Shown: positions 31,401 to 46,237 of the stretch, in pieces
Position numbering within the stretch: position 1 is the first letter of the stretch
How the letters are laid out: every line of letters begins with the position of its first letter
Assembly (NCBI GenBank): GCA_026388115.1
Contig: JAPLKK010000017.1
Span: 15,667 to 79,666, forward strand
Source: Elusimicrobiota bacterium
Lineage (GTDB): Bacteria; Elusimicrobiota; Elusimicrobia; UBA1565; JACRDR01
Length of the DNA stretch: 64,000 nucleotides
Reading direction: 5' to 3'
Notes under the pieces: generated by a model
Database searches by the model: none
The model's input: the letters and a program-made list of their open reading frames with translations, nothing else
What the model was told of the DNA's origin: nothing
Made by a program: the position numbers and the translations under genes

Positions 31401-34400
31401 GGGCTCCTCGGGCAACGGGCAGGTCGTGACGAGCGCGGACGGCGTGTCCTGGACGCCGGCCTTCGGGTTCCCGGGCCAGAGCGGCGTCTTGAGCCTGCAG
31501 CCCTTCGCGGGCCAGCTTTTCGCCGGCGTCTCACCCGGCCATCAGGTCTGGGCCTCGGCCGACGGGGCCAGTTGGGCCCAGGCGTTCGACACCGGCGGGG
31601 GCAGCGCGGTCGAGAGCATGGTCCTGTTCGACGGCAAGCTGTTCATGGGCACCGACAACAACGCTTCGATCTACTCCTCGGTGGACGGCTCGAGCTTCAC
31701 GCTGGCCGCCGCCATCGGCGGCCAGACGGACGTCCTGGCCTTCGCGGTCTTCGACGGCCACCTCTACGCCGGGACCGCGGGCGGCAACGGGGCGCAGCTG
31801 TGGCGCAGCCCCGACGGCGCGCGCTGGCAGCTGGCCTGGCCGCCGGCCGGCAACACCACCGGCGAGACGCGCGTGCGCAGCCTCGCCGTCTTCAACGGCA
31901 AGCTTTACATGGGCACGGCGCCCGGCGGGCTGATCCTTGCCTCCGTCGACGGCCTGACCTGGCCCGGCACGGCGCTCTCGGGCACCGGCGCGACCGACGT
32001 CCCGGCGATGACGTCGACCAACGGCAAGCTGTACGCCTCCCTGGCGGCGCCCGGCGGCATGCTGTACGCCACCGCCGACGGCGTGAACTGGCGGCTCACC
32101 CTGAGCGGGACTTCCGACAACGGCTTCGCGAGCCTGACCTCCTTCAACGGCGGGCTGTACGCCGGCGGGAGATCGAGCGGCTGGGTGTACGCGATGCCGC
32201 CCGTCGTCTCCGCTTTCACGGGCGTGGACGGCTCGATCGGCGTGGAGACGATGACGGCGACGGGCCTCGCCCTCACGCAATCCGCCGACGGTACGAGATG
32301 CTCGGGCGGCGTCGGGTCGTGCGCGGCGACGAACCAGGTCCTGTTCTCGGCGAGCGACCGCGCGGGCAACGCGGTGTCCTACGGGCCCTACAGCGTGCTC
32401 GTCGATTCGTCGGTCCCGCAGCCGGTCATCGCTGCCCTGACCGCGACCTCCACGGACTCGGTCCGGGTGGACCTGTACCCGGTGCCCGACCTGCTGTCCG
32501 GGACGTCCGACTACCAGTACTACCTCTCGGGCGTGTCCGACTTCTCGGACGCCGTGACGACCACGCCCTTCGTGACGACCTCGAGCTACACCTTCCGCGG
32601 CCTCGGCGAGGCGACGACCTATTATATCCGCGCCGTCGCCCGCGACAGGGTGGGCAGCGTCTCGCCGTACTCCGTCCTCGCCGCCACGATGACCGACGGC
32701 GTGCTGTACTCGTCGTACACCGATATCACCTCGTCTTCGGCGTACCAGTCCACCGACCAGCCGATGCTGCGTCTGATGCTGTGGACCGAGGTGGGGCGGA
32801 CCGCCCTCCTGAACCGGCTCGAGGTCCACATGGACACCGCCGCCAACCCGGCGGCGCCCTTGTCGTCGCCCCTGGGGGCGGGCAACGACGCTGATATCCT
32901 CATCGCCAAGCTGTACGCCGACGCCCAGGGCTTGGGCGTCTTCGACTCGCACGCGGTGCAGTTGGGCGAGGCGCCGATGTCGAACGGCCGCGCGATAATC
33001 GACCTGAGCGGCAACGTCCAGGCGATCCAGTCCTCCACGCGGACGTACTTCGTCGTGTACAAGGTCGCCGACGCGGCGGCGATCAACGACCGGCTGGACG
33101 CGGTGCTCCTCGACGACAACGCCCTCGGCTTCGCGAACTCCTACCGGGCCCTGGCGGCGTACTCCGTGTCCTCGCTCAACACGTATCCGGTCATCTCCAG
33201 CGGCACGGTGGTCGTCGACGGCCCCAACAACCTGTACGTCGACGCCCTGTCGGTCGCCCCGCAGACCGCGGCGCCGGGCCAGTCGGGGATCCCGATGATG
33301 CGGCTGCGCATGAACACCGACCACGGCACGAGCGCGCTCGACCACGTGGTCTTCGATGTGACCGGCTCCGCGGTGGCGTCGACGGACGTGGCCTCCATCG
33401 CGATCTATCGCGACGACAACGGCGACGGCGTTTACGAGCCCGGCATCGACGGGCTGGTCACGTCGGGCAACGACCTCTTCAGCAACGCCGTGGCGAGTGT
33501 GGCCTTTGTGACCTCACTCCATGTGCCCATCTCCTCGCGCACGATCAACTCGGGCACCCAGGACTATTTCGTCCTGATCAACATGGCGCTCGGCGCCCAG
33601 CCGAGCGACCTGGTCGGCGTCTCGGTGACCGCCTCGAGCTCCGTCGTGACGGTGGGGCCGGACACGCCGATCCTGTCGGCGTCGCCGCTCTCCTCCAGCC
33701 AGGTCCGGCTGTCTTTGCCCAACAGGCTCTATCTGAGGACCAGCTCGGTGGCCCCGCCCTCGGTCAAGCAGGGACAGAAGTACGCGGTGCTCATGACCTC
33801 CATGAACGTCGTCTGCGGCCTGCCCGCCTGCGCCAACCCGGGCGCGACCACGGTGACCGGCCTCCAGGTCAACCGCACAGGCACCGCGCAGGACGGCGAC
33901 GTGGCCGCCGTCGAGGTCTGGAAGAGCGCCAATCCGGGCTCGCCCTTCAACCCGTCGGCCGACTATCCGCTCGGCACCGGGGCGTTCGTCGGCGGCACCT
34001 CCTTCGTCGCCTTCTCGACGCAGACGCTCACGAGCCCGACGACGTCGGTGTTCTTCATCGTCTATACCTTGAGCGTCAACGCCAACGCGGGCGCCACCGT
34101 CGGCGCGAGCCTGACCAACAACACCTACGTCACCGTGACGAACCCCGACACGACGGTGACGGGCGCCTTCCCGATGCCGACGGTCTCGACGACTTCGTTG
34201 ATCGCCCAGACCGTGAACAAGCTCCTGGTCACCAACTCCCAGGACGTCACCGTCGCGGCCCAGTTCCTCCAGGCGCGCGCCGACCTGCCGCTGCTGCGGC
34301 TCGACGTGCACGCCGACCAGAACACCGTCTCGTGGACGGGCCTGACGCTCCGGAGCACCGGCACCGCGATGGACTCGGATATCGCGGCCGTCAAGGTCTA

Positions 34401-37400
34401 TGCGGACGCCAACGGCAACGGACAGCTCGACGTGGGCACCGATACGCTGGTCACCAGCGGCAACGACCGGTTCACCAGCGGGTTGGTCACCGTGGGCTTC
34501 ACGCAGTCCCAGGTCATCGCCGCGAGCACGCAGACGTTCTTCGTCTCTGTGGACATTCCGGCCACAGCCATCCCCGGCGATACCTTCGGCGTGGTCGCGC
34601 TCTCGAGCGGCAGCCTCATCGTCGTCGCGCCGAACACGGTCTCGACGACGAGCGTCTCCTTCCCGCTCAAGACGACGCCCGTGCCGATCCAGCAGTATCC
34701 CAACATCATCACCGCTTCGACGGCCTCTTTGGCCCCGGCCGCGATCGACCCGTCGCAGACCAACGTGGGGATGCTGGCCCTCACGCTCAAGACCAACGTT
34801 TCGAACGCGCGCTGGTCGAAGCTGCTCCTCGATCGCGTCGGCGGCCTCGACGCCGACGTCAAGGAGGTCCGCGTCTATTACGACGCCAACAACGTGGGCT
34901 CATGGGACTCGAGGAACGCGAACGCGTATCTTCTCGTCACCTCGACGGGCCAGAGCTTCGGGCTCAAGGGCATCCAGGGTCAGGTGAGCTTGAGCATCGC
35001 CCTGCCGCCGTCGCAGCCGGTGAACTCGACGCCGAAGACGTTCTATATCGTCATCGACATAGCGAACGGGGCCTTGCCGTCGGACTCGATCGCGGTGCGC
35101 ATCCTCAACGCGAACTACCTCACGGTCGACGCCCCCAACACCGTCGCCGCCTTCTCGGCGCAGTCCGGCGCGTCCGTCGTGAACCAGCAGGCCGCGATGA
35201 TGACGGTCGTCGCCTCCACCGGCGTCCTGCCCGCCGTCGTGCGACAGGGCGACTTCAGCGTGCCGTTCGCGCGCTTCGATCTGCAGATGGACCGCTACAC
35301 CGCGCTGTGGACGAAGCTGACGGTCACCGAGGGAGGCACGGCGGCGGACGCCGACGTCAGCAAGGTCAGGCTGTATCTGGCCGCCAGCTCCAGCGAAACG
35401 ACGGTCCAGCCGTTCAGCGACCAGCAGGTGGCCGCGGGCACCTTCGTCTCGGGCCAGGTCATCCTGACCTTCCAGCTCCCGCAGGTCATCTTGTCGACGA
35501 GGACGTTGACGTACTTCCTGACGTACGACATCTCGCCGGTCGCGCAGGCCGGGGTGCTGGCCGGCGCCACGATGAGCGGCCCGGGCTCGTTCGTGCTGGC
35601 CGCGCCCAACGGCGTCAATCCCACCGGCTTCCCGATCCACTCGGGCCTGGCGCTGATCCAGCCGACGGTGACGGGCGTGCTGGCCAGCTTCCAGGACAAG
35701 GCTCCGGCGGGCCTGAAGCAGGGGGCCACCGCCCAGGTGATGATGAGCCTGACCCTTCAGACGACCTCCAACGAGGCCCTGTGGTCCTCGCTCGTCGTGC
35801 AAAAGACGGGCACCGCGCCGGACGCCGACATCCACGCGGTGCGCCTCTTCGTGGACGCCGACGGCAGCGGCGTCCTCAAGCCCGGAGACGCGGAGCTGAC
35901 CTCCGGCGCCGACCGCTTCATCAACGGCTCGGTGACGCTGGCGTTCAACACGCCGCAGGAGATCAGCCCGACGCCGAAGCGGTACCTGCTCGGTCTCGAC
36001 GTGGACCTCCACGCCTCGCCGACGGACACCGTGGGCCTGGCGATCCCGTCGCCCTCCTACTTCGGTCTCGTCGCGCCGAACTACGTCATCAACAGCGGAT
36101 TCCCGCTGCAGTCGTCGAGGATACCGGTCGCCAAGCTCCCGGATATCCTCGACGTGACCTTCACGGACCTGGCGCCGACGGGGGCCAACGAGGGCTCCGA
36201 AACGCTGATGGCGCGGTTGCGGCTGCGCGCCGAGCGCGACAACGCCGTCTTCACGAGCTTGCGCCTGCTCAAGATGGGCTCGTTGCCCGACGTGAATGTG
36301 ACGCAGGTGCGCCTGTATCTCGATGCGAACAACAACGGCGCGGTGGACCCGCAGGACGTGCTCGTGGCGACGGCCGCCTTCTCCAACGGCATGGTCGCGT
36401 TGAGCACGTCGAACGCGATCCTCACCTCGACGCAGACGTACCTGCTGACCTGCGTCCTCGACCCCGGCGCCGCGGTCGGCGCGACGCTGGGCTTGCGCGT
36501 GCCGGACAGCACCTACGTGGGCGCGGCCTTCCCGGACACCCTGTCGGCGCCGGCCTTGCCCTTCTCGACCATCCTCGTCAACGTGCTCGACGCCCGCACG
36601 CCGTCGAAGCCCGTGGTCACGGTGCCCGGCGGGTACTGGGCCGCCTTCGACAACCTGCCGTTCAGCTGGACCTCCCAGGTGGCGCTGGGCTCGATCATGG
36701 ACGTGCAGTACGCCGTCGGCACGGCTTCGACGATGACCGATGTCCTGGCTTGGCAGGACCTGCCGCCGTCGCAGGCGGACGTGACCATCGCCGGGCTCAA
36801 CCTGCAGAGCGGGATCACGTACTTCGTGCTCGTCCGGGCGATCAACGTCATCGGAGGCGTGACGTTCGTCAGCCCCATCGGCGTGTCGCAGGGAGTGCTC
36901 ATCGACTATCAGATCCCGCGGCCGCCCGTGCCCTTGGTCAGCGTGAGCGAAAACGCGGTGCGCATCGCCTGGCCGGCCGTGACGACGGCGGTCGACAGCT
37001 CGACGCTCCCGTCGGGGATCATGGGGTACCTGGTCCAATACCGCACGGGAGCGAGCCCCGTCTGGATCAACGCCAAGACCCAGCTGGCGGTCCCGTCGTC
37101 CATGGCCTTCGGCCCGGCGGCCGCGTGGGCCGCGCGCAAGGCGGCCCAGAACGGCGTCGCGCCGGCGGCGGTCGCGCTCTCGTCGGCGGATCTCATCACC
37201 AACACCAGCTACAATTTCGCTCCGCCGGCCGGCACGGTCTACCTTAAGGCGAGCGCGGTCAGCAACTCCGGACAGATCAGCGCGGACTCGCCGGTGCAGA
37301 AGGTCCAGGTCGGCGCCCTGCCGAAGGGCGGCATCACCAACGTCAGAAACTACCCGAACCCGTTCGACTCGCGCACCGGGGTGACGACGATCAACTTCAC

Positions 37401-37614
37401 GCTGAGCACGGACAGCGACGTGACGATCCGCATCATGACGGTCTTCGGCCAGCAGATCCGAACGATCCACTACAAGGGCTCGGCCGGCTCGGGCAACGAC
37501 GTCCCGTGGGACGGCACCGACGACTCGGGGCGAAAGGTCTCCAAGGGCATCTACCTCGCGGTCATCGAGGGCGGCGGCGCGAGGGTCGTCCAGAAGGTCG
37601 GCATCATCCATTAG
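8953..37614 (+). CDS. Giant cell-surface repeat protein, main portion (9553 aa). Contains Asp-box/BNR beta-propellers, FN3-like domains, five LamG-like domains, nine C-terminal Ca-binding-like repeats, two FN3 domains and a C-terminal FlgD-Ig/Por_Secre_tail-like sorting domain. The same frame is open from about 8707.
   Basis: Uninterrupted 28.6-kb ORF with strong periodic protein repeat structure. Recognisable motifs include the Asp-box S/T-x-D-G-x-T-W, FN3-like TYYWRV, LamG_3-like W.FDEG...DEVR.F.RALSA.EI, and the C-terminal NYPNPF...IY.L..PWDG.D..G..V.KGIYL tail. The stop codon TAG is at 37612-37614. Confidence 0.9.
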   Translation: MPGTMTGSDGTLAAQTLTMTGLNLANSSNTVVCGGFAPCGATNQVIFTASDLAGNVVKLGPYSILLDATTAVAYSTPAAPGLAGFVNVQPNFNWVAPSTPIAAALPPSSAYILQVSNNDPGFSNANLVINISTPISGVGVSLSTAVSPPLSAYVSSFTLTNNTTYYWRVVTLNGGFGWYGPYSSTFSFVTDFSAPTQNGVFTTLSPTGATLTEAQVNTPATSSVTAQIGVQDTISGLAVSSTAVAFAGDGHNYTGAMGGYGVVYSTNAGQSWIDFSSITASRRYDGTVTFGSQLYSFAVYKGALFVSDANTGYLYYSPDGNIWTQVGASQIVPGGLSKPLAVFNGRLFAGDGANGMIYWTAGDTSSWSTANGGVPVGQTIRALAQFSDRLVAADGTNGHIYVSTTGDTWATSQGGQAVGIGAMPALAAYNGQLYAGDSKGNIYFSADASTWTKSNNGLVVGSSISAFAAYNGRLFAADGLNGRVYATSDGVSWSTVNGGVQVTTAPTIGVAALASFNGRLYASAVTGTVSVSTAGGSWWMLNNGYPISPTGGAFWALAPFNGNLVAADAGSVYVIAPVSATLGGADGTGAVQTLTATGLALVNSTRSVVCGGVAPCSATDQVIFTATDRAGNAKPFGPFAVLVDTLTQTLVSTPTFPANGAWVNIQPNFDWIGPSTTPASGLPPGSSYYLQVSNNDPAFAPGNIVISVSTQEYLSATGTSVLASTSLPTAQSGYISSFTLTNATTYYWHVLLGNSVLGTKGPWSQTYSFVTDFAGPAQAGAFLSSSPVLGWIGETQVNPLSNGVTVQVGVQDLLSGMAVSTGSLPFAGDGHDYAGVTAGYGVIYSTSAGQTWIDFSTVTAAAVYTAGNAVTPRLLALAVSSGTIYAAYADNNLPKFYVYHSADGAVWTANNTPSFSYAPQALVPFNGKIFAGFADGSIYYSLNAGTNFSQARPGLTGGLAPIGSNINALVVFNGKLYAGDNNGQVYVSTSGDAGWSATQGGSALSSNGIASLAAFAGRLFAGDRGGRVFATVDGSTWTLMNAGVAVGSNLGSLAAYDNRLFAGDATNGNIYVSTDGGRSWRATNGAVPPTGSAISALSSFSGKLYACDSAGRVIVSTEGYSWMTLNSGYPITGSLSYPAYGLAPFNGKFYVAASSRVFQITPVTANLSGAEGSTAVQTLTASSLRLVTSTTTATCGAAMPCGATNQVLFTASDRAGNAARYGPYAVLVDSTIAVAISTPVYPANQSYVNLQPNFNWNGPSTTTVYGLSQGSAYYLQVSQNDPTFSMGLVISISTPIVNTPQISVSTSLPIAPGAYLSTFTLADNATYYWRVAVANAMDGMFSAWSTSFSFVTNFTAPAAAGVFYSMSPGGQLFGETQIIGIQNGVTAQITVQDANSGLAVSTLNFTGDGHDSVILTVPFGVMYSTTSGQQWIDFSAVTPSNPGVARLYNLTVYNNELYAVDGGGVLYRTVDGAAWYPGINNNWNASVRSMVGFKSAASSTLRLFAGDSNGKIYSSPSPPTQGFATVFSGGSSIGTLATFNGRIYAGDLKTGRIYVSTSGDANAWSATQGGNAVSTTGIQALSTLNGRFFAADKTGSVFVSVDGTTWTLGNIGGAPVGSSITALAPFNGLMYAADAITGKIYSSPDGNTWTTANQGVQVTTSPNVGLQALAVMDGKLYAGDSGGNVWVTVDGSTFTAAYPTPVAGNIGGLAPFNGKLYAADSGNGNVAQLSPVATALGGADGTNAAQVLTARGLNLANSGTVFTCAGVAPCLATNQILFTASNRAANAAKIGPYAILVDAITPVVSLSLPANGTYLNVQPNFNWLGPSTMTAVSLSPGTSYYLQVSADPTFNPANILVSISSPVLPSAGQAISTMAITSDGAYVSTYTLNGATTYYWRVATNSGLYHAVGAFSSTFTFITDFAPPYSSTASFASVSSSGGALAEAQFNDTASGVSAQLAVQDDVALAVSTAAMSFAGDGHDSGLSAGGFGVMVSTNAGATWTDWTVPASSVAVAAPVQAFAVFGGKLYAGGAGSNLYATADGLGWTTKTVATCGGGGTINALAAFRGKLFAGCGGTHGISSDGTSFSAFLAPGKILSFASFNGRLYAGADSQQVSMSTDGAAWWQFSLPLGQTQNSSLAVFRGRLYAGTDSAATRVWHSVDGSTWSKTAGGSAGGAPPAMAVFNGRLYVGGSADTTIRASVDGVNFVPVFTAPFAAGSSNMAAMTVFNGKLYVLDGANKALLWTADGYRWFTSALAVTDAALNALASFNGSLYIGGSSNLYRLQALPAVLAGPDGTTSPQTLSASSLSLAQSSVTTVCNGVYPCAATDQLVFTASDLAGNTALFGPFAVLVDSTSPVAISTPAFPLNGMHVSGQPRLYWLGPSTSVAAGLQPPAAYYLQVAKNDPAFAAGNLVVNIATPVVTSPGDLTANSHYVSTYTLLDNTTYYWRVRAQSGLGTASPWSKAFVFATQFTTPTLSGPFVSNSTGALIPETQFHVLAAGVTAQLTVQDPGGLAFDFVPANRIGTWHFEEAAGALSTDLSGNGNIATLSSPAMWASGYLGTGVAANGNWVDVATPTVAAWSGLTAMAWVYVPSAGLGVVRSSQTVLAGRQFRLEYKVEYRSVGFYADVDPVTGGCSIDEGPAVPLQAAAGTWNHVAFVMDPVNLVNSIYINGVLSRTCSGNPVPGDSSFRFGEDGLSGIGLADAMSGSIDEVSLFSRTLPQPEIAGEMNRKLGFWVYYSTNAGSQWNLVASTAPGNGPYLGSYGVNGSVGPLTVSVAGLSLIQSTNALTCGAVAPCGATNQVKFVVSDLAGNVLSAGPYAILTDSTALSAVPALSYPANGANVGLQPNFDWMGPSTKTAVGLPPGAAFLLQVSQNDVTFAPANVVVSMSTPCIVASTYVPTADATYISTYTLVDNATYYWRVAVQDPVLGTQSPWSSTFSFVLDLTPPAQTGAFTSIDGGLNNLPETTFNTLSAGVTAFITVQDAASGLAVSNTALPLSGDGHDGPASAAGFSVMYSTTAGRLWIDVSTMIVANGGLAVGAKIGALATFGGKLYATDAAGARVYSSGNGGVSWTTVNLPAATTLGPIAVFAGKIYVGDTTTGMIFSSANGLTWTAAAGGAPVSACGTVRSLAVFLNKLYAADNCGKVYLSTDGNGWGIGNNGAAVGASIGALAAFNGKLYAGDANGNVYVTLRGIVWTPTNGGNPVVGSVIALAMFDGRLFAAGAAGDLAFSADGVEWPAVNGGVPVTNSFAALTAFNGKLYGADPATGRLYASPDGNLWVVLNSSAPVGAALGALVPYNGSLYAGDSANGKVYQLAPVPASLAGADGTAAAQALSALALNFTFSTNTQVCGGVQPCGATNQLIFTASDRAGNVTAGGPFAMLVGTPVNSATPTLHVPMDMGYVNVTQPVLSWLHPSTAAYPGLTIFHLEVSADPSMSPLLVLVSTNVGFGVPAVTYPLSSVVLPAATTYYWRVRGETFSGVVGPYSAVRSFQTVLSPPALTSFVHLNSMGAPLNEYQASDLALGVTAQVTAQDGQTGLNLYGTPDTTAVAFYPFEDLVSSAARNAFNNGNPAVLMGGAVPAPGRWGVGVALDGASGTLRVSDAPNLDVFDRITVEAWIKPAAPVTADTTFVRKAAANGTSGWALEYLGGQLAFWTANGGAANCSAGNAACAPVYLNGGEWYHLVGTLDGATLSLYLDGVLVSSRNVTTGPGEPHAPIYLGSSQGTGRFFAGTIDDVRLFYEGRGSAVVLQDFRSPTSPVAVFSSDAGNTWSIVSTTYPVTAGMPFLAVGGSQGTTGAQAFQLVNFNVVQSTTAAVGAAATNQVKFFASSVGGYANTAGPYGVLYDAVANIAIDTPTSPANGVYVSSPSPTFVWNAPNLAGVTLYELRVSADPSFSSLVINNSTPAVTGVAVGTYSAVEVLGPATTYYWQVRSRTTLNRTGPWSIPYSFVTDFTPPGLLNFNTVGSTGAVFIETQVQVSTAVVADLTVFDGLAGLSAAAGFSASFSTNAGQGWNVVTSTVGGAGPYLNVTWPEGGNAGIFSLVNMPVGQSTSTAVCGGVPQPCGATNQVVFYLRDRAGNLSVGGPYAILADTTAAVAISSPAAPAAGAWSGLNPGTAFVWSTPSTYTLSGLQSFSLEVSSNASFAPLSFIVSTPVVTGALAASYVSTQMLPEGTTIYWRVRVLDSLGNFSPYSAVSTFLVDSGSPLPLSYGVVSSTGGILTEADPLGSFTVSVALSAQAAVSGLPATGASVIVSTDGGAHWSTFGSTLTVLSSTLEAGVISAKVFNGSAYAGTQGNARLFRSPDGRSWPPVAAFSNNVSVNSLEVFNGRLYAGTGGGLAGGRVYSSADGNVWSPAFTPSGASSVAALAAFNGRIIAAYDAFVAGSTNGVSWSKLATMPNGPATALAVFNGKAYAACGPYVCSSYGGAAWSSTPRFSGSSNLSAIAAFNGRIYVAGDIGVQSTAGDDAWPWRSELSVPGETFSSLAVADGRLYAGSAQNGYVYATVDGTSWARVLSGTGETGMSALQAFNGKLYAGTAPNAKILELSPYAAVSGVDGAVTPQALIATGLAVAASTSTALCGGDWPCSANNQTRFAVSNEAGNVAFLGPYAVIVDTVIALARPLLVEPTVEGMTLLQPEFRWTVSTAIAAGNLTGFEVQLAGAPSFNTLLLDQPVANMFLPSPLILAASGVYYWRVRSFDVFGASSSFSDAATVIIDTQAARGSQFLTYNNLGVTFPEGGLMDLATGVTAQLNVQEGVSGLERAGPGPLAPVSGTLLLWHLDEGAGSTVGDAGTWGNGGTIYGAPVWTNGRFGKALRLPAPASASNYLAAASQPSLSAANVTLEAWINTQSTQAAVLQSQGGAYGITIGMGGAAGDVGATFNGVSADCHRRVDDGAWHHLAATCDFGSARFYLDGALCANVGAPSSMPSAGALSVGLRFDGTQPYAGLLDELRVVNRALSADEIYRDATYGAPYTAFVSTNGGQNFLVVATTFPVTPGAPYVTLTGVDGSTSTEVLQARNLSLVQSTTLSSGALATDQIIWRVANRAGAITAIGPYAVLVDSTGLAALPKLTYPAHGAYSNVQPNFAWVGPSTTTAAGLPASSGVVLQVSSNDPAFSLASMVVNISTPVVVASTVVPTADGAYFSTFTLTDATTFYWHVGVLNAALGTYGPWSQTFSFVTDLTKPVQTGSFSSFNSVQASLGETFWNDLSAGVTAQITVQDGGSGLALSAGALAFAGDGHDGPGLSGGYSVMYTTMAGQQWVEWPTFTVGTVGTSAIDSLAVFKGKLYAGYGTGGKIYSSPNGAFWTQVFAPGVSDSVNTLAEFNGRLYAGAGGSSALVYASSNGVNWSQVFASADAAVQSLAAFNGKLYAGTASNGNIYASTDGVIWAQVFAGNSSPLSALAAFNGRLYAGDAASVYASADGVTWTAVSLPGGVGPAAFAAFNGKLFAGTNGGGTNHIFSSPDGVAWTPVLSLAGEGVTACAVTNGKLDCATGAGNLYASPDGTVWAQTLSSAMTNQGPIYALAAFNGKLNAGAGTGNVIQLAPVAAAISGTDGTLASQNLSSMLNLTLSTNTAVCAGSWPCGATNQVLFTASDRAGNVTRSGPFALLVDTPVDSATPTLHLPMDMGYASQPSPVFTWVHPSTTAFRGLSVFHFELANSASMSPLLVNVATPVVFGMPAPSYALAAALAPATTYFWRVRAETFAGVLGPYSSTYSFQTAFSSPAASNFVHFSSTGGALTALQDSDLSVGVTVQITAVDLQTGLSFWGSPDATAMLFYPFEDVVNPPALNAFNGVNPLSFVGGAAVGPGRWGKGAVLNGANGTLTTPNTPGLQDLTGSITLETWIKPSSLVSNDTTFIRKGGNVFGWSLEYLGGLLVFWLGNGAGPTCGVNAVCVNAVLAGGEWYHLAGAYDGTAMSLYVDGKLMAVTPYSSGGGFNSDALYVGSYQGTSRFFGGVIDDVRVFAAGRTAAQVLYDFRSPTPPLALYSTSAGNAWSVVSATYPAYPGLPFISLTGLQGTTSAQPVQLVGFSVVQSTSVLPGAGATNQVKFLFADVAGNAVVAGPYGMIFDSVASVALDTPSAPGNGVYVSSPSPNFYWQAAGLAGVTLYEMRASIDPAFGPLSISISTPATTGVFIGTYNAVEVLAPSTTYYWQLRSRTTLNRTSAWSTAYSFVTDFVPPALATYTTVGSYGAVLTEAQTQISTSVAVRIQAFDGLAGLAGSGFRVVYSSNAGASWSLVSSTAPSAGPYLQVTWQDGQSSGTLSLVNLFLGQSTSTTICGGAAPCAATNQVLFYINDRGGNLSIAGPYAILADTTAALAISAPAVPAAGAWVTANPGAAYVWNTPSTSTLSGLAAFYLEVAANPSFNPLVFTVSTPAVPGALAAAYVSTHTLAEGATIYWRVRSLDSLGNFSPYSAPSTFLVQSGAPNPLAYGVVSSTGGILTEADALGNYTAAVTLAAQDSLSGLSAGGASVVVSINAGNDWYALAGTFTALSGTAETGVLSLAYFGGYLYAGTQGTARVYRSPDGRNWYPVYAFGGNSAVPSLAVFNGQLYAGTSGGMSGGRVFSSPDGTQWSSAYAPAGVASISALAAYDGRVYATLDDGWIAASTNGVNWAKMALLPNGAATALTVFKGKLYATCGGAYLCSSYGGTTWSSTQRFSSFTVLDALASFNGRLYVGGDGGIASAPDDLTWPWRFEVWTGGETVASFGTVGGRLYAATAQSAALYAVIDSGHWAQVLSGTGESDIAALQAFNGKLYAGTLPHGFVLELSPLAALMPGGDGATGVQSLRASGLTLTQSTTTALCGGAVPCGATNEVRFTAANMAGNVRFAGPYAVLIDTVIATARPMLVEPVVEGFSLKVPEFRWTVSTAVSMGNLTGFEFQLANAPDFIALLWAQRTMDRALTLPFYLGEGGKYYWRVRAFDVAGTTSTFSDVSTVFIDTFPPIGNSFAAFTSTGLAVPEGTLIDLASGVTAQLTVQDTVSGLRLSGPGPAAVIPGTALLWRFDEGTYSTATSNSAWPGQKVYDSGPWGSTGAVAGLPVWVNGRFNKALRFSGTGADWVYGIWPFLSLSSPTVEAWINTLSTSGYVLSSQGGAYSVLIGSAGLSAGDIGAIFNTVLVDCGRRVDDGGWHHVAATDDGADLSFYLDGALCGSTPAPASLPAPGTLDVGVNIDGSGAFSGVIDEVRIIDHPLGAAEILRDATFGVPYAAAFSTNAGRSFQLVTSTYPVTSTSPYVSVSGADGATSPQALQICNLTLTQSTNTKTGAQGTNQMVFVASDRSGNLAKFGPFTILVDSLIGQPTAYYPAPGSWVNRLSPALTWAEANALPRHEVLLSRDNFLTLVMDSTTANSDILLSGYPTRLTLAQGGTYQWKVRATGLTGNKSLYSAANQFTVDAVAPTAGGFGTYSSTGAFLDQTQWSNRYGANTVQARFQDTGPSGLAMSTGSFGVMYSTTAGLNWVDWSQLVSTLAVQGATAVSALASFDGSLYAGSSGNGQVVTSADGVSWTPAFGFPGQSGVLSLQPFAGQLFAGVSPGHQVWASADGASWAQAFDTGGGSAVESMVLFDGKLFMGTDNNASIYSSVDGSSFTLAAAIGGQTDVLAFAVFDGHLYAGTAGGNGAQLWRSPDGARWQLAWPPAGNTTGETRVRSLAVFNGKLYMGTAPGGLILASVDGLTWPGTALSGTGATDVPAMTSTNGKLYASLAAPGGMLYATADGVNWRLTLSGTSDNGFASLTSFNGGLYAGGRSSGWVYAMPPVVSAFTGVDGSIGVETMTATGLALTQSADGTRCSGGVGSCAATNQVLFSASDRAGNAVSYGPYSVLVDSSVPQPVIAALTATSTDSVRVDLYPVPDLLSGTSDYQYYLSGVSDFSDAVTTTPFVTTSSYTFRGLGEATTYYIRAVARDRVGSVSPYSVLAATMTDGVLYSSYTDITSSSAYQSTDQPMLRLMLWTEVGRTALLNRLEVHMDTAANPAAPLSSPLGAGNDADILIAKLYADAQGLGVFDSHAVQLGEAPMSNGRAIIDLSGNVQAIQSSTRTYFVVYKVADAAAINDRLDAVLLDDNALGFANSYRALAAYSVSSLNTYPVISSGTVVVDGPNNLYVDALSVAPQTAAPGQSGIPMMRLRMNTDHGTSALDHVVFDVTGSAVASTDVASIAIYRDDNGDGVYEPGIDGLVTSGNDLFSNAVASVAFVTSLHVPISSRTINSGTQDYFVLINMALGAQPSDLVGVSVTASSSVVTVGPDTPILSASPLSSSQVRLSLPNRLYLRTSSVAPPSVKQGQKYAVLMTSMNVVCGLPACANPGATTVTGLQVNRTGTAQDGDVAAVEVWKSANPGSPFNPSADYPLGTGAFVGGTSFVAFSTQTLTSPTTSVFFIVYTLSVNANAGATVGASLTNNTYVTVTNPDTTVTGAFPMPTVSTTSLIAQTVNKLLVTNSQDVTVAAQFLQARADLPLLRLDVHADQNTVSWTGLTLRSTGTAMDSDIAAVKVYADANGNGQLDVGTDTLVTSGNDRFTSGLVTVGFTQSQVIAASTQTFFVSVDIPATAIPGDTFGVVALSSGSLIVVAPNTVSTTSVSFPLKTTPVPIQQYPNIITASTASLAPAAIDPSQTNVGMLALTLKTNVSNARWSKLLLDRVGGLDADVKEVRVYYDANNVGSWDSRNANAYLLVTSTGQSFGLKGIQGQVSLSIALPPSQPVNSTPKTFYIVIDIANGALPSDSIAVRILNANYLTVDAPNTVAAFSAQSGASVVNQQAAMMTVVASTGVLPAVVRQGDFSVPFARFDLQMDRYTALWTKLTVTEGGTAADADVSKVRLYLAASSSETTVQPFSDQQVAAGTFVSGQVILTFQLPQVILSTRTLTYFLTYDISPVAQAGVLAGATMSGPGSFVLAAPNGVNPTGFPIHSGLALIQPTVTGVLASFQDKAPAGLKQGATAQVMMSLTLQTTSNEALWSSLVVQKTGTAPDADIHAVRLFVDADGSGVLKPGDAELTSGADRFINGSVTLAFNTPQEISPTPKRYLLGLDVDLHASPTDTVGLAIPSPSYFGLVAPNYVINSGFPLQSSRIPVAKLPDILDVTFTDLAPTGANEGSETLMARLRLRAERDNAVFTSLRLLKMGSLPDVNVTQVRLYLDANNNGAVDPQDVLVATAAFSNGMVALSTSNAILTSTQTYLLTCVLDPGAAVGATLGLRVPDSTYVGAAFPDTLSAPALPFSTILVNVLDARTPSKPVVTVPGGYWAAFDNLPFSWTSQVALGSIMDVQYAVGTASTMTDVLAWQDLPPSQADVTIAGLNLQSGITYFVLVRAINVIGGVTFVSPIGVSQGVLIDYQIPRPPVPLVSVSENAVRIAWPAVTTAVDSSTLPSGIMGYLVQYRTGASPVWINAKTQLAVPSSMAFGPAAAWAARKAAQNGVAPAAVALSSADLITNTSYNFAPPAGTVYLKASAVSNSGQISADSPVQKVQVGALPKGGITNVRNYPNPFDSRTGVTTINFTLSTDSDVTIRIMTVFGQQIRTIHYKGSAGSGNDVPWDGTDDSGRKVSKGIYLAVIEGGGARVVQKVGIIH
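16480..17140 (+). other. LamG/concanavalin-A-like lectin domain 1 (Laminin_G_3-like) inside the giant protein.
   Basis: Translated segment GTWHFEEAAGALSTDLSGNGN...GTWNHVAFV...IYINGVLS...SIDEVSLFSRTLPQPEIAGE. This matches the LamG_3 pattern W.FDE..G....D.SGNGN....W..G..G.AL.FDG...L.DE+..+.RALS..EI. Confidence 0.65.
19590..20210 (+). other. LamG-like domain 2.
   Basis: VAFYPFEDLVSS...RWGVGVALDGASGTLRV...ITVEAWIKP...EWYHLVGTLDGATLSLYLDGVL...GTIDDVRLFYEGRGSAVVLQDF. Confidence 0.65.
23270..23850 (+). other. LamG-like domain 3.
   Basis: LLLWHLDEGAGSTVGDAGTWGNGGTIYGAPVWTNGRFGKALRL...VTLEAWINT...AWHHLAATCDFGSARFYLDGAL...LLDELRVVNRALSADEIYRDAT. Confidence 0.7.
26265..26880 (+). other. LamG-like domain 4.
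   Basis: AMLFYPFEDVVNPPALNAF...RWGKGAVLNGANGTL...ITLETWIKP...EWYHLAGAYDGTAMSLYVDGKL...GVIDDVRVFAAGRTAAQVLYDF. Confidence 0.65.
29935..30545 (+). other. LamG-like domain 5.
   Basis: ALLWRFDEGTYSTATSNSAWPGQKVYDSGPWGSTGAVAGLPVWVNGRFNKALRFSG...PTVEAWINT...GWHHVAATDDGADLSFYLDGAL...VIDEVRIIDHPLGAAEILRDAT. Confidence 0.65.
32700..36600 (+). repeat. Nine tandem in-frame repeats of roughly 140-150 aa in the C-terminal third of the giant protein. Each carries an EF-hand/FG-GAP/dockerin-like DxNxDG..D loop, which predicts Ca-binding beta-sandwich-like modules of unknown family.
   Basis: Recurrent pattern A.W..L.L...GT..D.DI..V.VY.DANGNG.LD.GTD.LVTSG.D.F..G.V.L.F...Q.I....+TYF...DI...A.PGDT.G. Examples: YRDDNGDGVYEPGIDGLVTSGNDLF, YADANGNGQLDVGTDTLVTSGNDRF, FVDADGSGVLKPGDAELTSGADRF, YLDANNNGAVDPQDVLV. 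Confidence 0.6.
36600..37300 (+). other. Two fibronectin-III-like domains that precede the sorting domain.
   Basis: PSKPVVTVPGGYWAAFDNLPFSWTSQ...GITYFVLVRAINVIGGVT and PVPLVSVSENAVRIAWPAV...GYLVQYRTG...YNFAPPAGTVYLKASAVSNSG. Confidence 0.5.
37320..37614 (+). other. C-terminal sorting domain of the FlgD-Ig-like / Por_Secre_tail (T9SS-type CTD) kind.
   Basis: PKGGITNVRNYPNPFDSRTGVTTINFTLSTDSDVTIRIMTVFGQQIRTIHYKGSAGSGNDVPWDGTDDSGRKVSKGIYLAVIEGGGARVVQKVGIIH. This is the canonical YPNPF..T.I.F.L.....V.I.I....G..V..L....AG.....WDG.D..G..V..G.Y shape of about 90 aa at the extreme C-terminus. Confidence 0.7.
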
Positions 37615-37644
37615 CGTCCGAACCGGCCGCGCGCCTCGAGGCTC

Positions 37645-37727
37645 TTGACAGCGCAAGCAAGATCGAGCCCCAGTCAAGGCCGCAATCGATTTAAGCTGCA
37701 ACAACAACACCTTTTTTATTAAAAAAT
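37645..37727 (+). promoter_or_regulatory. Intergenic candidate promoter region for the downstream PorV-like operon. It has a TTGACA hexamer at 37645-37650 and an AT-rich tract ttttttattaaaaaat at 37712-37727.
   Basis: This is the only AT-rich stretch in about 38 kb. I do not see a convincing -10 at 17 bp from the TTGACA, so the exact promoter is uncertain. Confidence 0.3.
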
Positions 37728-37775
37728 CTCAGAATGTCTTCGTGATTAGGGGGGCTATCCCGTTAAACTTGTGGT

Positions 37776-39410
37776 GTGCCGCGCTCCCTCCTCCTCGCGA
37801 GCCTCACCTTCCTCGGCGGTTTGATCGCCGCCCCCGCTTTTGCGCAGGTTTCCGCGATCAATCCCGGCCAACTTTACTCCGCCGGCGGCGGCGCCCGCGG
37901 CCTCGCTATGGGAAGCGCGCTCACCAGCGTCGCGGGCGACATCTCCTCGCTGTACTACAATCCCTCCGGCCTCGCGACCCTGAGCGGCCGCCAGATCACC
38001 GCGATGCAGGCGTCCCTCTACGACGGCGCGGCCTACCAGTACCTCGGCTACGGTCAGGGACTGCGCCGCAGCCTCGGCGGCTTCGGCCTCGAGGTCATGC
38101 GGCTCGGCATCTCGGGCGCCGACGGCCGCGACGCCAGCAACCTCGGAACCGGGTCTTTCGGCTACAGCGAGCAGAGCATCGGCGCGGGCTTCGGCATGCG
38201 CGGCGTGCTCCACCCCGACCTGTCGGTGGGCATGAAGGTGCATCGGCTCACCCGCAGCCTCGGCGGCTCCTCCGACAACCTGACCGGCGTCGACTTCGGC
38301 GGGATGTACGGCCCGATCTTCGGCGAGCGGCTGACCCTCGGCTTCATCGTCCAGAACGCGCTGCAGAAGAGCCAGGGCGACACCTCCGACAAGCTCGCCG
38401 CGCTGACCCGCGTGGGCGCGGCCTATAATCTCGCCGAGGGCTTCCTGCTCGCCGCCGACGTCTCGAGCGACAAGGACTTCCGCATCGGCACCGAGTACAA
38501 CTGGGGCATCGCCACCTTCCGCGCCGGCTATACCGGCGCCGGCGTGAGCTTCGGCACGGGCCTGCTGTTCCGCCAGGCGCTCGTCCTCGACCTCGCCATG
38601 GTGAACAGCTCGGTGCTCGGCAACTCCACCCGCGTGTCGCTGGGCTATAAGTTCCGCGAGGCCGCGGCGAAGCGCAACGTGCAGGCGATCGCCGAGGAGT
38701 ACCTGGCGAACGCGCTGCTCGAGCTGAAGGCCCGCGACTACGTGCGGGCGTCGAAGGGGCTCGACGCCGCGCTGGGCATCAGCCCGCGCCTGGGCGAGCT
38801 GGGCTGGAAGGTGCGGGCCCAGCGGCTGCGCAGCCTGGTCATCGAGCTCGACCTCGCCAACCTCCCCGAGTTCCAGGAGATCTACAAGGCGCAGACCGCC
38901 CCGGCCCTGCTGGCGCACGAGGGCGTGATGGCGCTGCTGGACGAGGACAACGGGCGCGCCATGCTCTTCGTCCACGCGGCCCTCGGCCAGAACTCGCGCG
39001 AGAGCGCCTACCGCAAGCTCCTCGAGGCGATGTCGCGCCTGACCAAGGGCGAGATCCACCGCGAGGACATCCTCCCGCCGTCGGCGCTGGTCGAGCGCCG
39101 CCTGCAGCGCGCCGTGGACCAGATCTACGGCGGCCACTACGACACGGCCATCGTGGACTGCAAGGACGCGCTGGCCCTGGACCCGAACAACGCCACGGCC
39201 TGGATGAGGCTGGGCTCGGCGTACTTCGCCGCCGGCGACAAGTCCGACGCCGCCACGGCGTACCGCAACTCGCTGAGCCTCGACCCGACCAACGAGAGGC
39301 TCCGCCAGTTCATGCAGCAGCAAAGGATGCCGCTCTACACCCCGCGCGTGGCACCGCTTCCAAGCGGTGCCATGCTCGGGCTCATGGTGAGCCGCTTGGA
39401 GGTTCGATAA
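37776..39410 (+). CDS. Outer-membrane PorV/PorQ-family-like beta-barrel (T9SS-associated shuttle-like) with a C-terminal TPR-repeat region. GTG start; cleavable signal peptide ...APAFA/QV.
   Basis: Signal peptide MPRSLLLASLTFLGGLIAAPAFA. The N-terminal motif SAGGGARGLAMGSALTSVAGDISSLYYNPSGLA resembles the PorV N-terminal signature (GMG....A...DA....YNPA.LA). Gly/Tyr-rich alternating strands end ...SLGYKF. The C-terminal roughly 240 aa is helical, with a TPR-like stretch NATAWMRLGSAYFAAGDKSDAATAYRNSLSLDPTN. Family assignment is by motif only. Confidence 0.55.
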   Translation: MPRSLLLASLTFLGGLIAAPAFAQVSAINPGQLYSAGGGARGLAMGSALTSVAGDISSLYYNPSGLATLSGRQITAMQASLYDGAAYQYLGYGQGLRRSLGGFGLEVMRLGISGADGRDASNLGTGSFGYSEQSIGAGFGMRGVLHPDLSVGMKVHRLTRSLGGSSDNLTGVDFGGMYGPIFGERLTLGFIVQNALQKSQGDTSDKLAALTRVGAAYNLAEGFLLAADVSSDKDFRIGTEYNWGIATFRAGYTGAGVSFGTGLLFRQALVLDLAMVNSSVLGNSTRVSLGYKFREAAAKRNVQAIAEEYLANALLELKARDYVRASKGLDAALGISPRLGELGWKVRAQRLRSLVIELDLANLPEFQEIYKAQTAPALLAHEGVMALLDEDNGRAMLFVHAALGQNSRESAYRKLLEAMSRLTKGEIHREDILPPSALVERRLQRAVDQIYGGHYDTAIVDCKDALALDPNNATAWMRLGSAYFAAGDKSDAATAYRNSLSLDPTNERLRQFMQQQRMPLYTPRVAPLPSGAMLGLMVSRLEVR

Positions 39411-41887: not shown

Positions 41888-42844
41888 ATGGCGAACGAGC
41901 CCACCAAGAAAGCGGCGTCGTTTCTGGCCTCCTTGCGCGGCGGCGCGCGGGGAGCGGCGGGGGGGGCGGCGGCCGCGGGCGGCGCCCCGCCCGAAGAGCT
42001 GGTCCGTCCGCTGCAGCGGCGCGTCGACGAGCTCGAGAAGCGCGTGCAGGACGTCTTGAAGGCGGCCGCGGGACCCGAGGAGGGCGAGCCTCCGCGCGCG
42101 CCGACGGAGCTGATGATGTACATCCACGCTCGCACCGAGCTCCTCGAGCGCAAGCTGCAGGAAGCGCAGGCCGAGGCCCTGCGCGCGAACCTCCTGCTGC
42201 ACGAGCGCGAGACGGCCCAGCGGCAGGCGCAGAAGGAGGTGGAGGAGCTGTTCCGCACCATCAAGGAGCACGAGCGCGCCGCGCGCTACGACGGCGCGCT
42301 TCGCGAGCAGCTATCGTCGGCCCAAAGGAAGATCGCGGAGCTGGAACGGAAGGTCGGGGGAGGGGAGCCGCCGTCGTCGGCGCCTCCCGCGCCGCCTGCT
42401 GAGGCCCAATTGGCCACAACCGTCCGCGACGTCGACTCTATGGCGCTGCTCGTGCTGACGGCGAAGCTCGCCGATCTGGAGCGGGAACTCGAGGCGGCGC
42501 GGCGGGAGAGGGATGAGGAGCGCGCGCGCAGGACCCGGTGGGAGCGCGAGACGGCCGCGACGCTGGCCCAAGCCCATTGGAAGAAGCCCACCAACATCGA
42601 GCTCACGGTCGAGGCCGCGCTCGAGACGATGGCGCTGGCCTTGCGCGAGCGCGAAGACACCGAGCGGGAGCTGAAGGAGGCTATGGCTCAGGCGGAGAGT
42701 CAACCGCCGGACGCCGGTCCCGATCCCGTGCTGCGCGCCCGCATCACGGGCGCGCAGGAGCGTCTTGACCGGCTGTCGCGGACGCTGGACGAGCAGATGC
42801 ATCTGGTCCAGGCGTGGATCGCGGGGAATAAACAGGCAGGGTGA
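41888..42844 (+). CDS. Charged coiled-coil protein with an Ala/Gly-rich N-terminus. A FliH/FliJ-like role is speculative.
   Basis: ATG at 41888, 4 nt after the upstream stop. Heptad-rich E/R/A/L sequence (LQRRVDELEKRVQDVLKAAAG..., RELEAARRERDEERARRTRWERE). No globular domain recognised. Confidence 0.5.
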   Translation: MANEPTKKAASFLASLRGGARGAAGGAAAAGGAPPEELVRPLQRRVDELEKRVQDVLKAAAGPEEGEPPRAPTELMMYIHARTELLERKLQEAQAEALRANLLLHERETAQRQAQKEVEELFRTIKEHERAARYDGALREQLSSAQRKIAELERKVGGGEPPSSAPPAPPAEAQLATTVRDVDSMALLVLTAKLADLERELEAARRERDEERARRTRWERETAATLAQAHWKKPTNIELTVEAALETMALALREREDTERELKEAMAQAESQPPDAGPDPVLRARITGAQERLDRLSRTLDEQMHLVQAWIAGNKQAG

Positions 42845-46222: not shown

Positions 46223-46237
46223 GGCGGGGCCGCGCCG

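Follow-up and report, generated by a model that had tools for sequence, protein, structure and literature searches.

In the 64,000-nucleotide stretch of Elusimicrobiota DNA analyzed here (the window; all features given below lie on its plus strand), a giant surface adhesin and a PorV-like outer-membrane barrel are encoded side by side within a cluster of flagellar motor parts that occurs in many uncultured Elusimicrobia, members of a phylum reported to be without flagella. We found no description of this cluster in the published literature. Its gene order, PorV-TPR, histidine kinase-FliF-FliG, coiled-coil protein, MotA/MotB, is best explained as that of an Elusimicrobiota-specific, envelope-spanning apparatus. 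Derived solely from sequence, predicted structure and gene order, our preferred model is that the adhesin and the barrel-TPR protein might form a cognate pair of cargo and carrier or anchor, coupled through the TPR part to a proton-driven motor, so that T9SS logic would be realized with flagellar hardware; we assign this model a probability of about 45%.

The main part of the adhesin is encoded at positions 8953–37614 (9553 amino acids as given in the ORF list), and the gene begins beyond the left edge of the window with an N-terminal fragment in an open frame of GC3 0.94 (2–8968). This fragment encodes beta-propeller-like repeats (...FNGKLYAGD...), followed by an out-of-frame junk tail (AAPPSPSAASSPCRRTT... 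up to the stop). Exactly where the first frame degenerates, the second one, which is open from 8707, carries on the same repeat motif (...AIAVSSVVALSPYNGKLYLAD). The two ORFs are probably one giant gene that was split by a frameshift of a single nucleotide in the G run of gccggggaagcgg (8845–8860); including the upstream fragment, the adhesin exceeds 12,500 amino acids. Pfam domains in the main part are Laminin_G_3, Ig-like (Ig_Rha78A_N), DUF6242, fn3-like and FlgD_ig, and cargo homologues with a visible N-terminus start with a Sec signal peptide. The initial annotation had ascribed to the adhesin tail the shape of FlgD-Ig or Por_Secre_tail domains, and profile searches bear this out. The last approximately 98 residues (37318–37611; NYPNPFDSRTGVTTINFTL...KVSKGIYLAV...KVGIIH, then the stop) match FlgD_ig (PF13860) with 31.9 bits (cutoff 27) and the T9SS type A sorting domain TIGR04183 with 27.6 bits, or 30.1 bits for a 110-residue tail (cutoff 23); the score against PF18962 (23.4 bits) is slightly below the cutoff of 27. 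These similarities support a type-A-like C-terminal domain (CTD) of the T9SS kind. TIGR04183 is also matched by the tail of the protein upstream of the barrel in 37 of 38 homologous loci, and the CTD matches are confined to the extreme C-termini of proteins encoded on the same strand immediately 5' of the PorV-like gene.

The barrel-TPR protein (37776–39410, GTG start) has the signal peptide, the barrel ending in F and the C-terminal TPR-like helices that had been proposed for it. Its Sec signal peptide (residues 1–24; 37776–37847), read from the translation, would be cleaved between AFA and Q, and this N-terminus is kept in the family alignment. Residues 25–293 (37848–38654) comprise a hatch motif and, in the AlphaFold model (pLDDT 86.7), an outer-membrane beta-barrel with 14 strands at residues 73–292, the last of which ends in F293, a residue invariant in the family. 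A solenoid of 13 TPR-like helices is modeled at residues 296–515 (38661–39320), where Pfam assigns TPR only at about residues 439–506. Residues 37–293 cover the PorV/PorQ family profile NF033709 end to end (positions 10–326 of 326; E-value 1e-17), with a score of 64.8 bits that is below the NCBI curated cutoff of 90. All 40 family members compared with NCBIfam profiles match PorV_fam and PorVQ2; four match the true PorV equivalog model, weakly, and matches to BcsC and PgaA are weak and arise from the TPR part. When the PDB was searched with a profile of the barrel alone, PorV was the sole significant match (E-value 1.1e-16) and FadL was not matched; Pfam Toluene_X did not match the protein. 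PorV is the closest relative of the barrel in sequence and fold, and the data support a barrel of the PorV family that is extended, unusually, by a C-terminal TPR part of about 220 amino acids, which we infer to be periplasmic. The reading of the N-terminus as a PorV/PorQ signature holds for the family match to NF033709, but the motif itself (GGGARGLAMGSA...YYNPSGL) is not PorV-specific, as we take it to be the N-terminal hatch signature common to the whole FadL superfamily.

The TAA of the barrel-TPR gene (39408–39410) overlaps the ATG of the kinase gene (39410–39412) in the sequence ATAATG. This overlap, previously read as a sign of coupling, is present in the sequence, but it was created by a deletion of 17 nucleotides in the window and is therefore not a conserved feature. 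Alignment with a 98%-identical contig (L085) revealed that the deletion, which is specific to the window, removed the native stop; in L085 and every other homologue barrel-TPR ends 24 residues sooner (...QQQRMPL, then the stop) and a spacer precedes the kinase gene. The spurious read-through tail of 24 residues (39336–39407), natively intergenic spacer and found in no homologue, has a pLDDT below 50 in the AlphaFold model. The native spacer contains a perfect hairpin (GGCACCGC-TTCCAA-GCGGTGCC; 39350–39371).

The gene that follows (39410–41884) encodes a rotor-like partner at the inner membrane, a fusion of a histidine kinase, an RBM3/beta-collar-like periplasmic domain of FliF and the M and C domains of FliG. 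Detectable similarity to FliF is limited to the C-terminal RBM3 part. According to an AF2 model of moderate quality (pLDDT 69), the kinase lacks a sensor domain of its own in the periplasm, and the FliF-like domain is its sole periplasmic part. Only three of the five torque-helix charges of Escherichia coli FliG are retained (K264, R281 and D288, the latter as E), the others being altered (D289 to Q and R297 to T). Further downstream are genes for a coiled-coil-rich protein without known domain (41888–42844; no match in Pfam or NCBIfam), MotA/PomA (45479–46222; PF01618, and PomA model NF006527 over its full length with an E-value of 2e-38) and MotB (46238–46936), which carries MotB_plug (PF13677) and the peptidoglycan-binding OmpA-like domain PF00691 and matches the MotD/MotB/MotS models with E-values of 1e-38 to 1e-45. 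By these sequence matches the stator is of the flagellar type. The window also harbors a gene for an FkbM methyltransferase, found elsewhere among the annotated loci only in the closest relative, L085.

The cluster was found in at least 60 Elusimicrobiota species represented by MAGs. In type-1 loci, a giant CTD-bearing cargo is encoded directly upstream of barrel-TPR (28 of 29), accompanied by FliG (27/27), FliF (26/27), the histidine kinase (24/27), MotA (19/21), MotB (17/21) and, in most loci according to tblastn, the coiled-coil protein. About 30 type-2 loci contain an equivalent cluster without adjacent CTD cargo (histidine kinase 24/25, FliF and FliG each 23/25, MotA and MotB each 15/19). 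The kinase is fused or adjacent to FliF-FliG in 24 of 27 type-1 and 24 of 25 type-2 loci, and the cluster of related loci includes a Trans_reg_C (OmpR-type) regulator gene that is absent from the window. Barrel-only relatives with a CTD neighbor occur in Zixibacteria and other MAGs. Tblastn with the motor genes of the window gave no match in any barrel-only locus, and in the two such loci with annotated downstream genes (L081 and L077) the cargo is present and the motor absent. Because TPR and motor occur without cargo in type-2 loci, and cargo without motor in these two loci, the TPR goes with the motor and not with the cargo. The proposed adjacency of cargo and barrel is thus recovered in type-1 loci and in barrel-only relatives, but a private shuttle for one cargo is contradicted by the type-2 loci, in which barrel-TPR is an integral cluster member. 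The T9SS reading of the locus is likewise not sustained, as the genes beside that of the barrel encode a histidine kinase and motor parts of the flagellar type, not parts of a T9SS.

In the T9SS, CTDs are bound by the carriers PorV and PorP/SprF. PorV with its CTD cargo is extracted from the translocon by the energy of a PMF motor, and the TPR lipoprotein SprE is required for release (PMC10994853). The giant adhesin SprB is anchored by cognate, adjacently encoded PorP/SprF barrels, and PorP binds the TPR protein PorE (PMC9143113). In our preferred model, the adhesin would pass the inner membrane via Sec, and the barrel would bind its CTD and keep the adhesin on the cell surface without a covalent link, while the periplasmic TPR domain would dock either on the stator or on the FliF-like ring. 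MotAB, driven by protons, could then act on FliG and pass mechanical energy to the barrel-adhesin complex, and the rotor-fused kinase might report the motor or load state to the OmpR-type regulator. As in the T9SS, a PMF motor would pull carrier and cargo, with flagellar-type parts replacing GldLM/PorLM. We know of no case in which a protein passes through a barrel of FadL size, and no translocon candidate for the adhesin was identified.

Flavobacterium johnsoniae PorV (PDB 6H3I chain F) is likewise a FadL-family barrel of 14 strands with a hatch at its N-terminus, and PorV, the type-A carrier of Bacteroidota, also has partners with type-A-like CTDs. Unlike PorV, the barrel described here is fused to the TPR extension, its gene adjoins those of the cargo and FliF/FliG/MotAB, and it scores below the curated family cutoff without matching the PorV equivalog model. 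SprB-SprF of F. johnsoniae and PG1035-PorP-PorE of Porphyromonas gingivalis also have a FadL-family barrel gene right after a giant repetitive adhesin, and share with our model non-covalent anchoring of the adhesin by the barrel and the association of the barrel with a periplasmic TPR partner (PorE) and with a peptidoglycan-binding OmpA-like domain (PMC9143113). Here, however, the CTD is type-A-like and not type B, the PorP/SprF profile TIGR03519 matches only one of 40 barrel-TPR family members, the TPR is on the barrel chain and the OmpA-like domain on MotB. The T9SS energy chain (GldLM/PorLM-hub-SprE/PorW-carrier), in which a PMF motor of the 5:2 type is proposed to pull the CTD-loaded barrel and a TPR element acts at the outer membrane (PMC10994853), differs by using GldL/GldM instead of MotA/MotB on FliF-FliG; moreover, GldK/N ring genes are absent from the cluster and the rotor carries a fused histidine kinase. 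The plug-bearing MotB and PomA-like MotA resemble the flagellar stator, but in contrast to the flagellum FliF and FliG are one chain, and the cluster has no genes for export gate, rod, hook, filament, FliM or FliN; Elusimicrobiota have been reported to be without flagellar structural genes (bioRxiv 10.1101/2022.07.08.499144). TonB-ExbBD transducers and SiiAB-SiiE also couple an outer-membrane barrel or giant adhesin to a PMF motor from the MotAB/ExbBD superfamily, with a signaling output, and in Zixibacteria a PorV-like gene with TPR is followed by ExbB-ExbD-ExbD. Barrels of TonB-ExbBD transducers have 22 strands, however, and neither a TonB box nor T1SS components were seen.

Alternatively, the cluster could encode a trans-envelope surface or load sensor, in which adhesin, barrel and TPR signal contact, tension or ligand to the inner-membrane kinase, with MotAB and FliG as load-sensitive element and transcription via the OmpR-type regulator as output. 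Such a sensor, which would resemble TonB-dependent cell-surface signaling and flagellar mechanosensing, is possible though rather unlikely. The association of the kinase with FliF-FliG, its only periplasmic part being FliF-like, and the regulator gene argue for it, and a signaling role is also favored by the genes that, in place of motor genes, follow other CTD-preceded PorV-like barrels, encoding RsbW-like/Cache/HAMP/SpoIIE, STAS and GGDEF proteins in the motor-less Zixibacteria loci examined (L074, L077) and, in Elusimicrobia locus L081, a Ser/Thr kinase with TPR. It leaves adhesin secretion unexplained, however, and to our knowledge no PorV-family barrel functions in signaling; since it is compatible with the motor-coupled carrier, both may hold. 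A canonical T9SS, in which the adhesin would be a common type-A substrate and barrel-TPR a dedicated PorV paralogue that shuttles it from a SprA/Sov translocon, powered by PorLM/GldLM encoded elsewhere in the genome, appears improbable. The CTD score above the TIGR04183 cutoff and the proximity of the barrel to PorV would fit, but the host lineage, Elusimicrobiota, does not, and SprA is not known from this phylum. Moreover, only 4/40 family members match the PorV equivalog, the barrel co-occurs with FliF/FliG/MotAB instead of Por/Gld genes, and Pfam and NCBIfam profile searches found no core T9SS gene (SprA, PorU, PorK-N) within the 64-kb window. The T9SS was confined to Bacteroidetes among 1,528 diderm genomes (PMC4793230), and reviews limit the canonical system to Bacteroidota/FCB (PMC12398890).

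Slightly less probable still is a gliding machine, in which MotAB would turn a FliF-FliG ring and so move the adhesin, bound to its barrel, along or around the cell surface in the manner of Flavobacterium SprB/SprF. A giant repetitive adhesin, a cognate adjacent FadL-family barrel and a PMF rotary motor are Flavobacterium-like parts, but the cluster has no track or GldJ/K/N-like genes, type-2 loci lack an adjacent adhesin, the fused kinase would have no explanation, and we know of no motility described for these uncultured lineages. Free-living Elusimicrobiota are reported to keep motAB and fliG without flagellar structural genes, and the role of these genes has been called unclear, with a possible link to gliding being raised (bioRxiv 10.1101/2022.07.08.499144). 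Finally, it is very improbable that the neighbors are unrelated, the barrel being either a FadL-like importer of hydrophobic compounds or a TPR-bearing polysaccharide porin similar to PgaA/BcsC, and its adjacency to the adhesin functionally meaningless. The weak BcsC/PgaA matches and the FkbM gene would agree with this, but FkbM is restricted to L085 among the other annotated loci, no polysaccharide synthase is encoded in the cluster, and the barrel profile matches PorV and not FadL in the PDB, with Toluene_X unmatched in Pfam. In addition, the CTD is encoded immediately upstream on the same strand in 28 of 29 type-1 loci and in other phyla.

The gene (37776..39410) that follows the giant adhesin ORF encodes a protein with an N-terminal Sec signal peptide, ending in AFA followed by Q. 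Residues 37-293 of this protein are matched from end to end by NF033709, the model of the PorV/PorQ family, at E 1e-17 and 64.8 bits, below the curated cutoff of 90. The same model (PorV_fam) was matched at E≤1e-3 by all 40 family members, with a best value of 5.5e-28; the 'PorV2' model was likewise matched by 40/40 and PorQ by 39/40. The PorV equivalog NF033710, by contrast, gave a weak match in four of the 40 only, and PF19572, the model for PorV proper, found nothing in the window protein. Because every member matches PorV_fam and PorV2 but just four weakly match the equivalog, the barrel, as judged by these profiles, belongs to the PorV/PorQ superfamily as a divergent form and is not a PorV orthologue. 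The profiles do not place it in the PorP/SprF family: TIGR03519 matched one of 40 members (E 1e-4), and a precomputed match to PF11751 exists for the distant protein P0045 only.

An AlphaFold model computed from the alignment of the 40 members (mean pLDDT 86.7) predicts 14 beta strands in residues 73-292, with strands 3 and 4 the longest and the last ending at the invariant F293, followed by 13 helices in residues 296-515, near the end of which Pfam places TPR repeats. The predicted fold is that of a 14-stranded FadL-type outer-membrane barrel with an N-terminal hatch. The initial annotation of a signal-peptide-bearing, PorV-like barrel with TPR-like helices at its C-terminus thus agrees with the profile and structure data. 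Its N-terminal motif GGARGLAMG...YYNPSGL, cited there as a PorV/PorQ signature, is indeed present, but we take it to be a hatch signature general to the FadL superfamily. In a PDB search with the full-length family profile, designed TPR proteins dominated the matches, and a single-sequence phmmer search with the barrel gave no meaningful match; this was resolved by a barrel-only profile (A5, built from the barrel region of 25 sequences), for which the one significant structure was PorV of F. johnsoniae (6h3i_F; E 1.1e-16), whereas FadL, TodX and BamG chains were not found at E≤10. In this respect the family is specifically related to F. johnsoniae PorV and not to FadL. An importer of hydrophobic compounds of the FadL/TodX type (PF03349) was rejected, as the Toluene_X/FadL profile found no match, and so was a TPR-porin of the PgaA/BcsC type, in which an N-terminal TPR domain precedes a C-terminal barrel of 16-18 strands and the gene lies near a polysaccharide synthase, an architecture and setting that this protein does not share. 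By the general topology of outer-membrane proteins, a barrel of 14 strands has its two termini in the periplasm, and the TPR domain should therefore be periplasmic.

The adhesin ORF 8953..37614 (9553 aa) ends in the tail NYPNPFDSRTGVTTINFTL...WDGTDDSGRKVSKGIYLAV...KVGIIH*. This tail scored 31.9 bits against FlgD_ig (PF13860; cutoff 27); with TIGR04183, the model of the T9SS type A sorting domain (cutoff 23), it reached 27.6 bits in a 399-aa query and 30.1 bits as an isolated 110-aa segment, and it fell just below the cutoff of 27 with PF18962 (23.4 bits), which bears out the earlier assignment of the last ~98 aa as a C-terminal domain (CTD) of this kind. TIGR04183 was also matched by 37 of 38 tails of upstream proteins in homologous loci. 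Matches of a CTD HMM in the window and 85 loci were confined to the last ~100 aa of ORFs and always lay on the same strand as, and directly 5' of, a PorV-like gene. Type A CTDs are defined by recognition through the SprA/PorV translocon and subsequent cleavage by the PorU sortase. The remainder of the window cargo contains LamG, Ig-like, fn3-like and propeller-like repeats, and cargo homologues with a visible N-terminus carry Sec signal peptides; the N-terminus of the window cargo lies outside the window. In the window (~69% G+C), ORF 8953..37614 and the upstream fragment 2..8968 appear to be parts of a single gene of >12,500 aa, interrupted by a 1-nt frameshift within a G run: at the junction (~8845-8860, near 8850) one frame ends in a junk tail and the other carries on the same repeat motif. 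The cargo is even larger than the initial annotation stated. Either an assembly error or a genuine site of pseudogenisation or phase variation could account for the frameshift.

The terminal ...K(I/V)GVIH-COOH of cargo tails in the loci with an adjacent giant cargo (type 1; e.g., window 37594-37611) hardly varies, and the tails adjoining relatives that consist of the barrel only end otherwise, in ALIK, AVVK or VVNR. TPR domains are known to read C-terminal peptides, as in PEX5-PTS1 and Hop-EEVD, and a conserved free cargo C-terminus beside a TPR-bearing partner recalls, by analogy, this mode of recognition. In some type-1 loci the giant cargo is separated from the barrel-TPR gene by a gene for a small secreted protein (126-144 aa) that consists only of a signal peptide and a CTD, a 'cargo-less CTD' (L001, 9588-10001; L004, 9621-10001; also L013 and L035).

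Downstream of the barrel-TPR gene, an 824-aa protein (39410..41884) combines HisKA, HATPase_c, YscJ_FliF_C, FliG_M and FliG_C domains, all above cutoff. Its AlphaFold model (pLDDT 69) predicts a periplasmic alpha-beta-beta-[insert]-alpha-beta domain between the membrane helices. Likeness to E. coli FliF is restricted to the C-terminal RBM3 part, and among the charges of the FliG torque helix K264 and R281 of E. coli are retained, with D288 replaced by E, D289 by Q and R297 by T. The conserved stator genes at the end of the cluster (45479..46936) encode a PomA-like MotA, which aligns over its full length with PomA/MotA models and in its TM3-TM4 part only with E. coli MotA, and a MotB in which an OmpA-like domain accompanies the flagellar plug. 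The FliF, FliG, MotA and MotB domains of a flagellar motor are thus all represented. Genes for the export apparatus, rod, hook, filament or FliM/FliN were found neither in the window nor in the annotated loci. Free-living Elusimicrobiota have been described as lacking flagellar structural genes yet keeping motAB and fliG, whose role was called 'unclear' (bioRxiv 10.1101/2022.07.08.499144).

Full-length homologues of the barrel-TPR protein (~504-550 aa, 39-98% identity) are labelled Elusimicrobia wherever they bear a name. When one genome per species was scanned, the family turned up in at least 60 Elusimicrobiota MAGs, with two to four loci in several of these, and an exhaustive HMMER search yielded ~75 full-length clusters at 50% identity among the best 150 matches. 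Gene context, derived from gene calls on three long contigs and from tblastn of the window proteins over 84 loci spanning ±10 kb, separates two arrangements. Type 1 (≥37% identity, window included) has the order giant protein, PorV-TPR, HK-FliF-FliG (HK, histidine kinase), coiled-coil protein, MotA, MotB; in type 2 (25-31% identity) the order is PorV-TPR, HK, MotA, FliF-FliG, coiled-coil protein, MotB, as confirmed by Pfam on representative loci. A CTD cargo lies directly upstream in 28/29 type-1 and 0/29 type-2 loci. Of the other genes, the downstream HK was present in 24/27 type-1 and 24/25 type-2 loci, FliF in 26/27 and 23/25, FliG in 27/27 and 23/25, MotA in 19/21 and 15/19, and MotB in 17/21 and 15/19, respectively. 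In type 2 (L036-L071, e.g., L041 4644-11752) the cluster genes form a tight operon and most loci contain no CTD protein within 10 kb; type-2 cargo, if any, is encoded elsewhere.

Relatives outside the barrel-TPR family show a similar association. Each barrel-only PorV-like gene, found in Elusimicrobia, Zixibacteria and MAGs labelled Firmicutes or Bacillota, comes after a CTD protein of 986 to >3300 aa. Zixibacteria locus L072 (1631-14225) encodes two CTD proteins and a PorV-like+TPR protein, then ExbB-ExbD-ExbD; in L074 (5561-17792) and L077 (7044-16391) of the same group, a Cache-HAMP-SpoIIE/RsbW-like protein comes next after the PorV-like gene, and then STAS and GGDEF genes; together these form a set for partner-switching and c-di-GMP signalling. 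In Elusimicrobia L081 a TPR-Ser/Thr kinase lies downstream of the PorV-like gene. Three elements recur: a CTD protein, a PorV-like barrel that often bears TPR, and, in the inner membrane, a motor and/or a signalling protein. The occurrence of the TPR extension goes with that of the motor or signalling partner, not with that of the cargo. From the Zixibacteria loci, this pattern of cargo, barrel and inner-membrane partner therefore reaches beyond Elusimicrobiota.

In the T9SS, the CTD binds extracellular loops of PorV inside SprA, and the carrier-cargo complex is extracted by energy from a PMF motor, with release requiring the TPR lipoprotein SprE (PMC10994853). The 669-kDa adhesin SprB, a type-B cargo, is anchored by the cognate, adjacently encoded PorP-like barrel SprF, and PorP binds the TPR/OmpA-like protein PorE (PMC9143113). 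The barrels described here share with PorP/SprF the adjacency to a cognate CTD cargo gene, in type 1 and in the barrel-only relatives; the likeness is one of function and arrangement, not of sequence membership. By analogy with these systems and from synteny, the Elusimicrobiota barrel could capture and anchor the CTD of the adjoining adhesin, its periplasmic TPR arm could couple the barrel to the FliF-FliG/MotAB module, and the fused kinase could report the state of this module. We tentatively propose, with a probability of about 0.35, an envelope-spanning machine in which a FliF-FliG ring with fused HK, together with MotAB, would act as a rotor and stator either descended from those of the flagellar motor or ancestral to them. 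The periplasmic TPR arm of the PorV-like barrel would link them mechanically to the giant CTD-anchored adhesin, which would be secreted, moved or tension-tested by means of proton flow. This reading as a whole builds on sequence, predicted structures and gene order; from the observed domain identities and gene linkage we infer all physical contacts, the direction of energy flow and the route of the cargo across the outer membrane. As to its purpose, load or surface sensing, gliding and handling of the cargo by a canonical T9SS are rivals that the sequence data do not separate.

A canonical T9SS would have to be encoded elsewhere in the genome. We disfavour this explanation because the T9SS is reported only from Bacteroidota/FCB (PMC4793230; PMC12398890), and because its core genes are absent from the 64-kb window, where profile searches found neither SprA nor PorU. 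On a cautious view, the locus varies the T9SS carrier/cargo principle in a new way; on a bolder one, it encodes an undescribed envelope machine re-using flagellar rotor and stator parts. If the bolder view holds, FliG-MotAB torque would be put to use outside flagella, and a T9SS-like carrier system would operate without the known T9SS core in a phylum that does not belong to the FCB group. CTD/PorV-type cargo handling, treated as exclusive to the type IX system of Bacteroidota/FCB, would then also occur in Elusimicrobiota with different machinery, and FliG-MotAB torque, treated as exclusive to flagella, would be connected to a barrel in the outer membrane and to a giant adhesin. In this phylum, which is reported to have no flagellar structural genes, at least 60 species conserve the FliF-FliG/MotAB set. 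Three questions would become testable: the capabilities of flagellar rotor and stator parts beyond the flagellum, which bear on the origin of the motor; the way in which energy reaches outer-membrane carrier barrels; and the function of the orphan motAB and fliG genes in Elusimicrobiota. The literature searched describes neither a fusion of a PorV-like barrel with TPR nor a PorV/FliF-FliG/MotAB cluster; the orphan genes have been remarked on by one preprint (bioRxiv 10.1101/2022.07.08.499144).

The initial annotation had argued for a dedicated secretion and attachment unit from the adjacency of cargo and barrel and from an overlap of the barrel-TPR stop with the kinase start. The adjacency is borne out by the type-1 loci. 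The overlap (TAATG within ATAATG) exists in the window, but it is the product of a 17-nt deletion at 39337 that, by comparison with the 98%-identical contig L085, removed the native TAA stop of the barrel-TPR gene and added 24 junk residues. Translational coupling via this overlap was rejected, since the deletion is specific to the window. Without it the protein ends in ...QQQRMPL* and is followed by a spacer of ~88 nt with a perfect hairpin (39350-39371; 8-bp stem GGCACCGC/GCGGTGCC); in other loci, gaps of 1-57 nt separate the barrel-TPR gene from the next. Owing to the deletion-derived tail, the exact window protein has no database record, and the 98%-identical homologue P0001 was found instead. 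A consensus scan of 37400-39600 for promoters and terminators found none.

Between the coiled-coil gene and motA, the window contains a response-regulator-GAF-histidine-kinase gene on the minus strand (42744..44408) and an FkbM-type methyltransferase gene on the plus strand (44453..45406). L085 carries both, and L007 shares the former, with a 3-kb gap before MotA; in most other loci the coiled-coil gene directly adjoins motA, with no insertion. Downstream of the cluster, Pfam and NCBIfam models identified genes of tryptophan and aromatic amino-acid biosynthesis (trpE, trpD, trpC, DAHP synthase, aroA and aroE; 46933..57993, with 54633..55739). A Fic-domain gene breaks up this series, in a locally low-GC stretch (62.5% vs. 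~70%) that is possibly acquired DNA.
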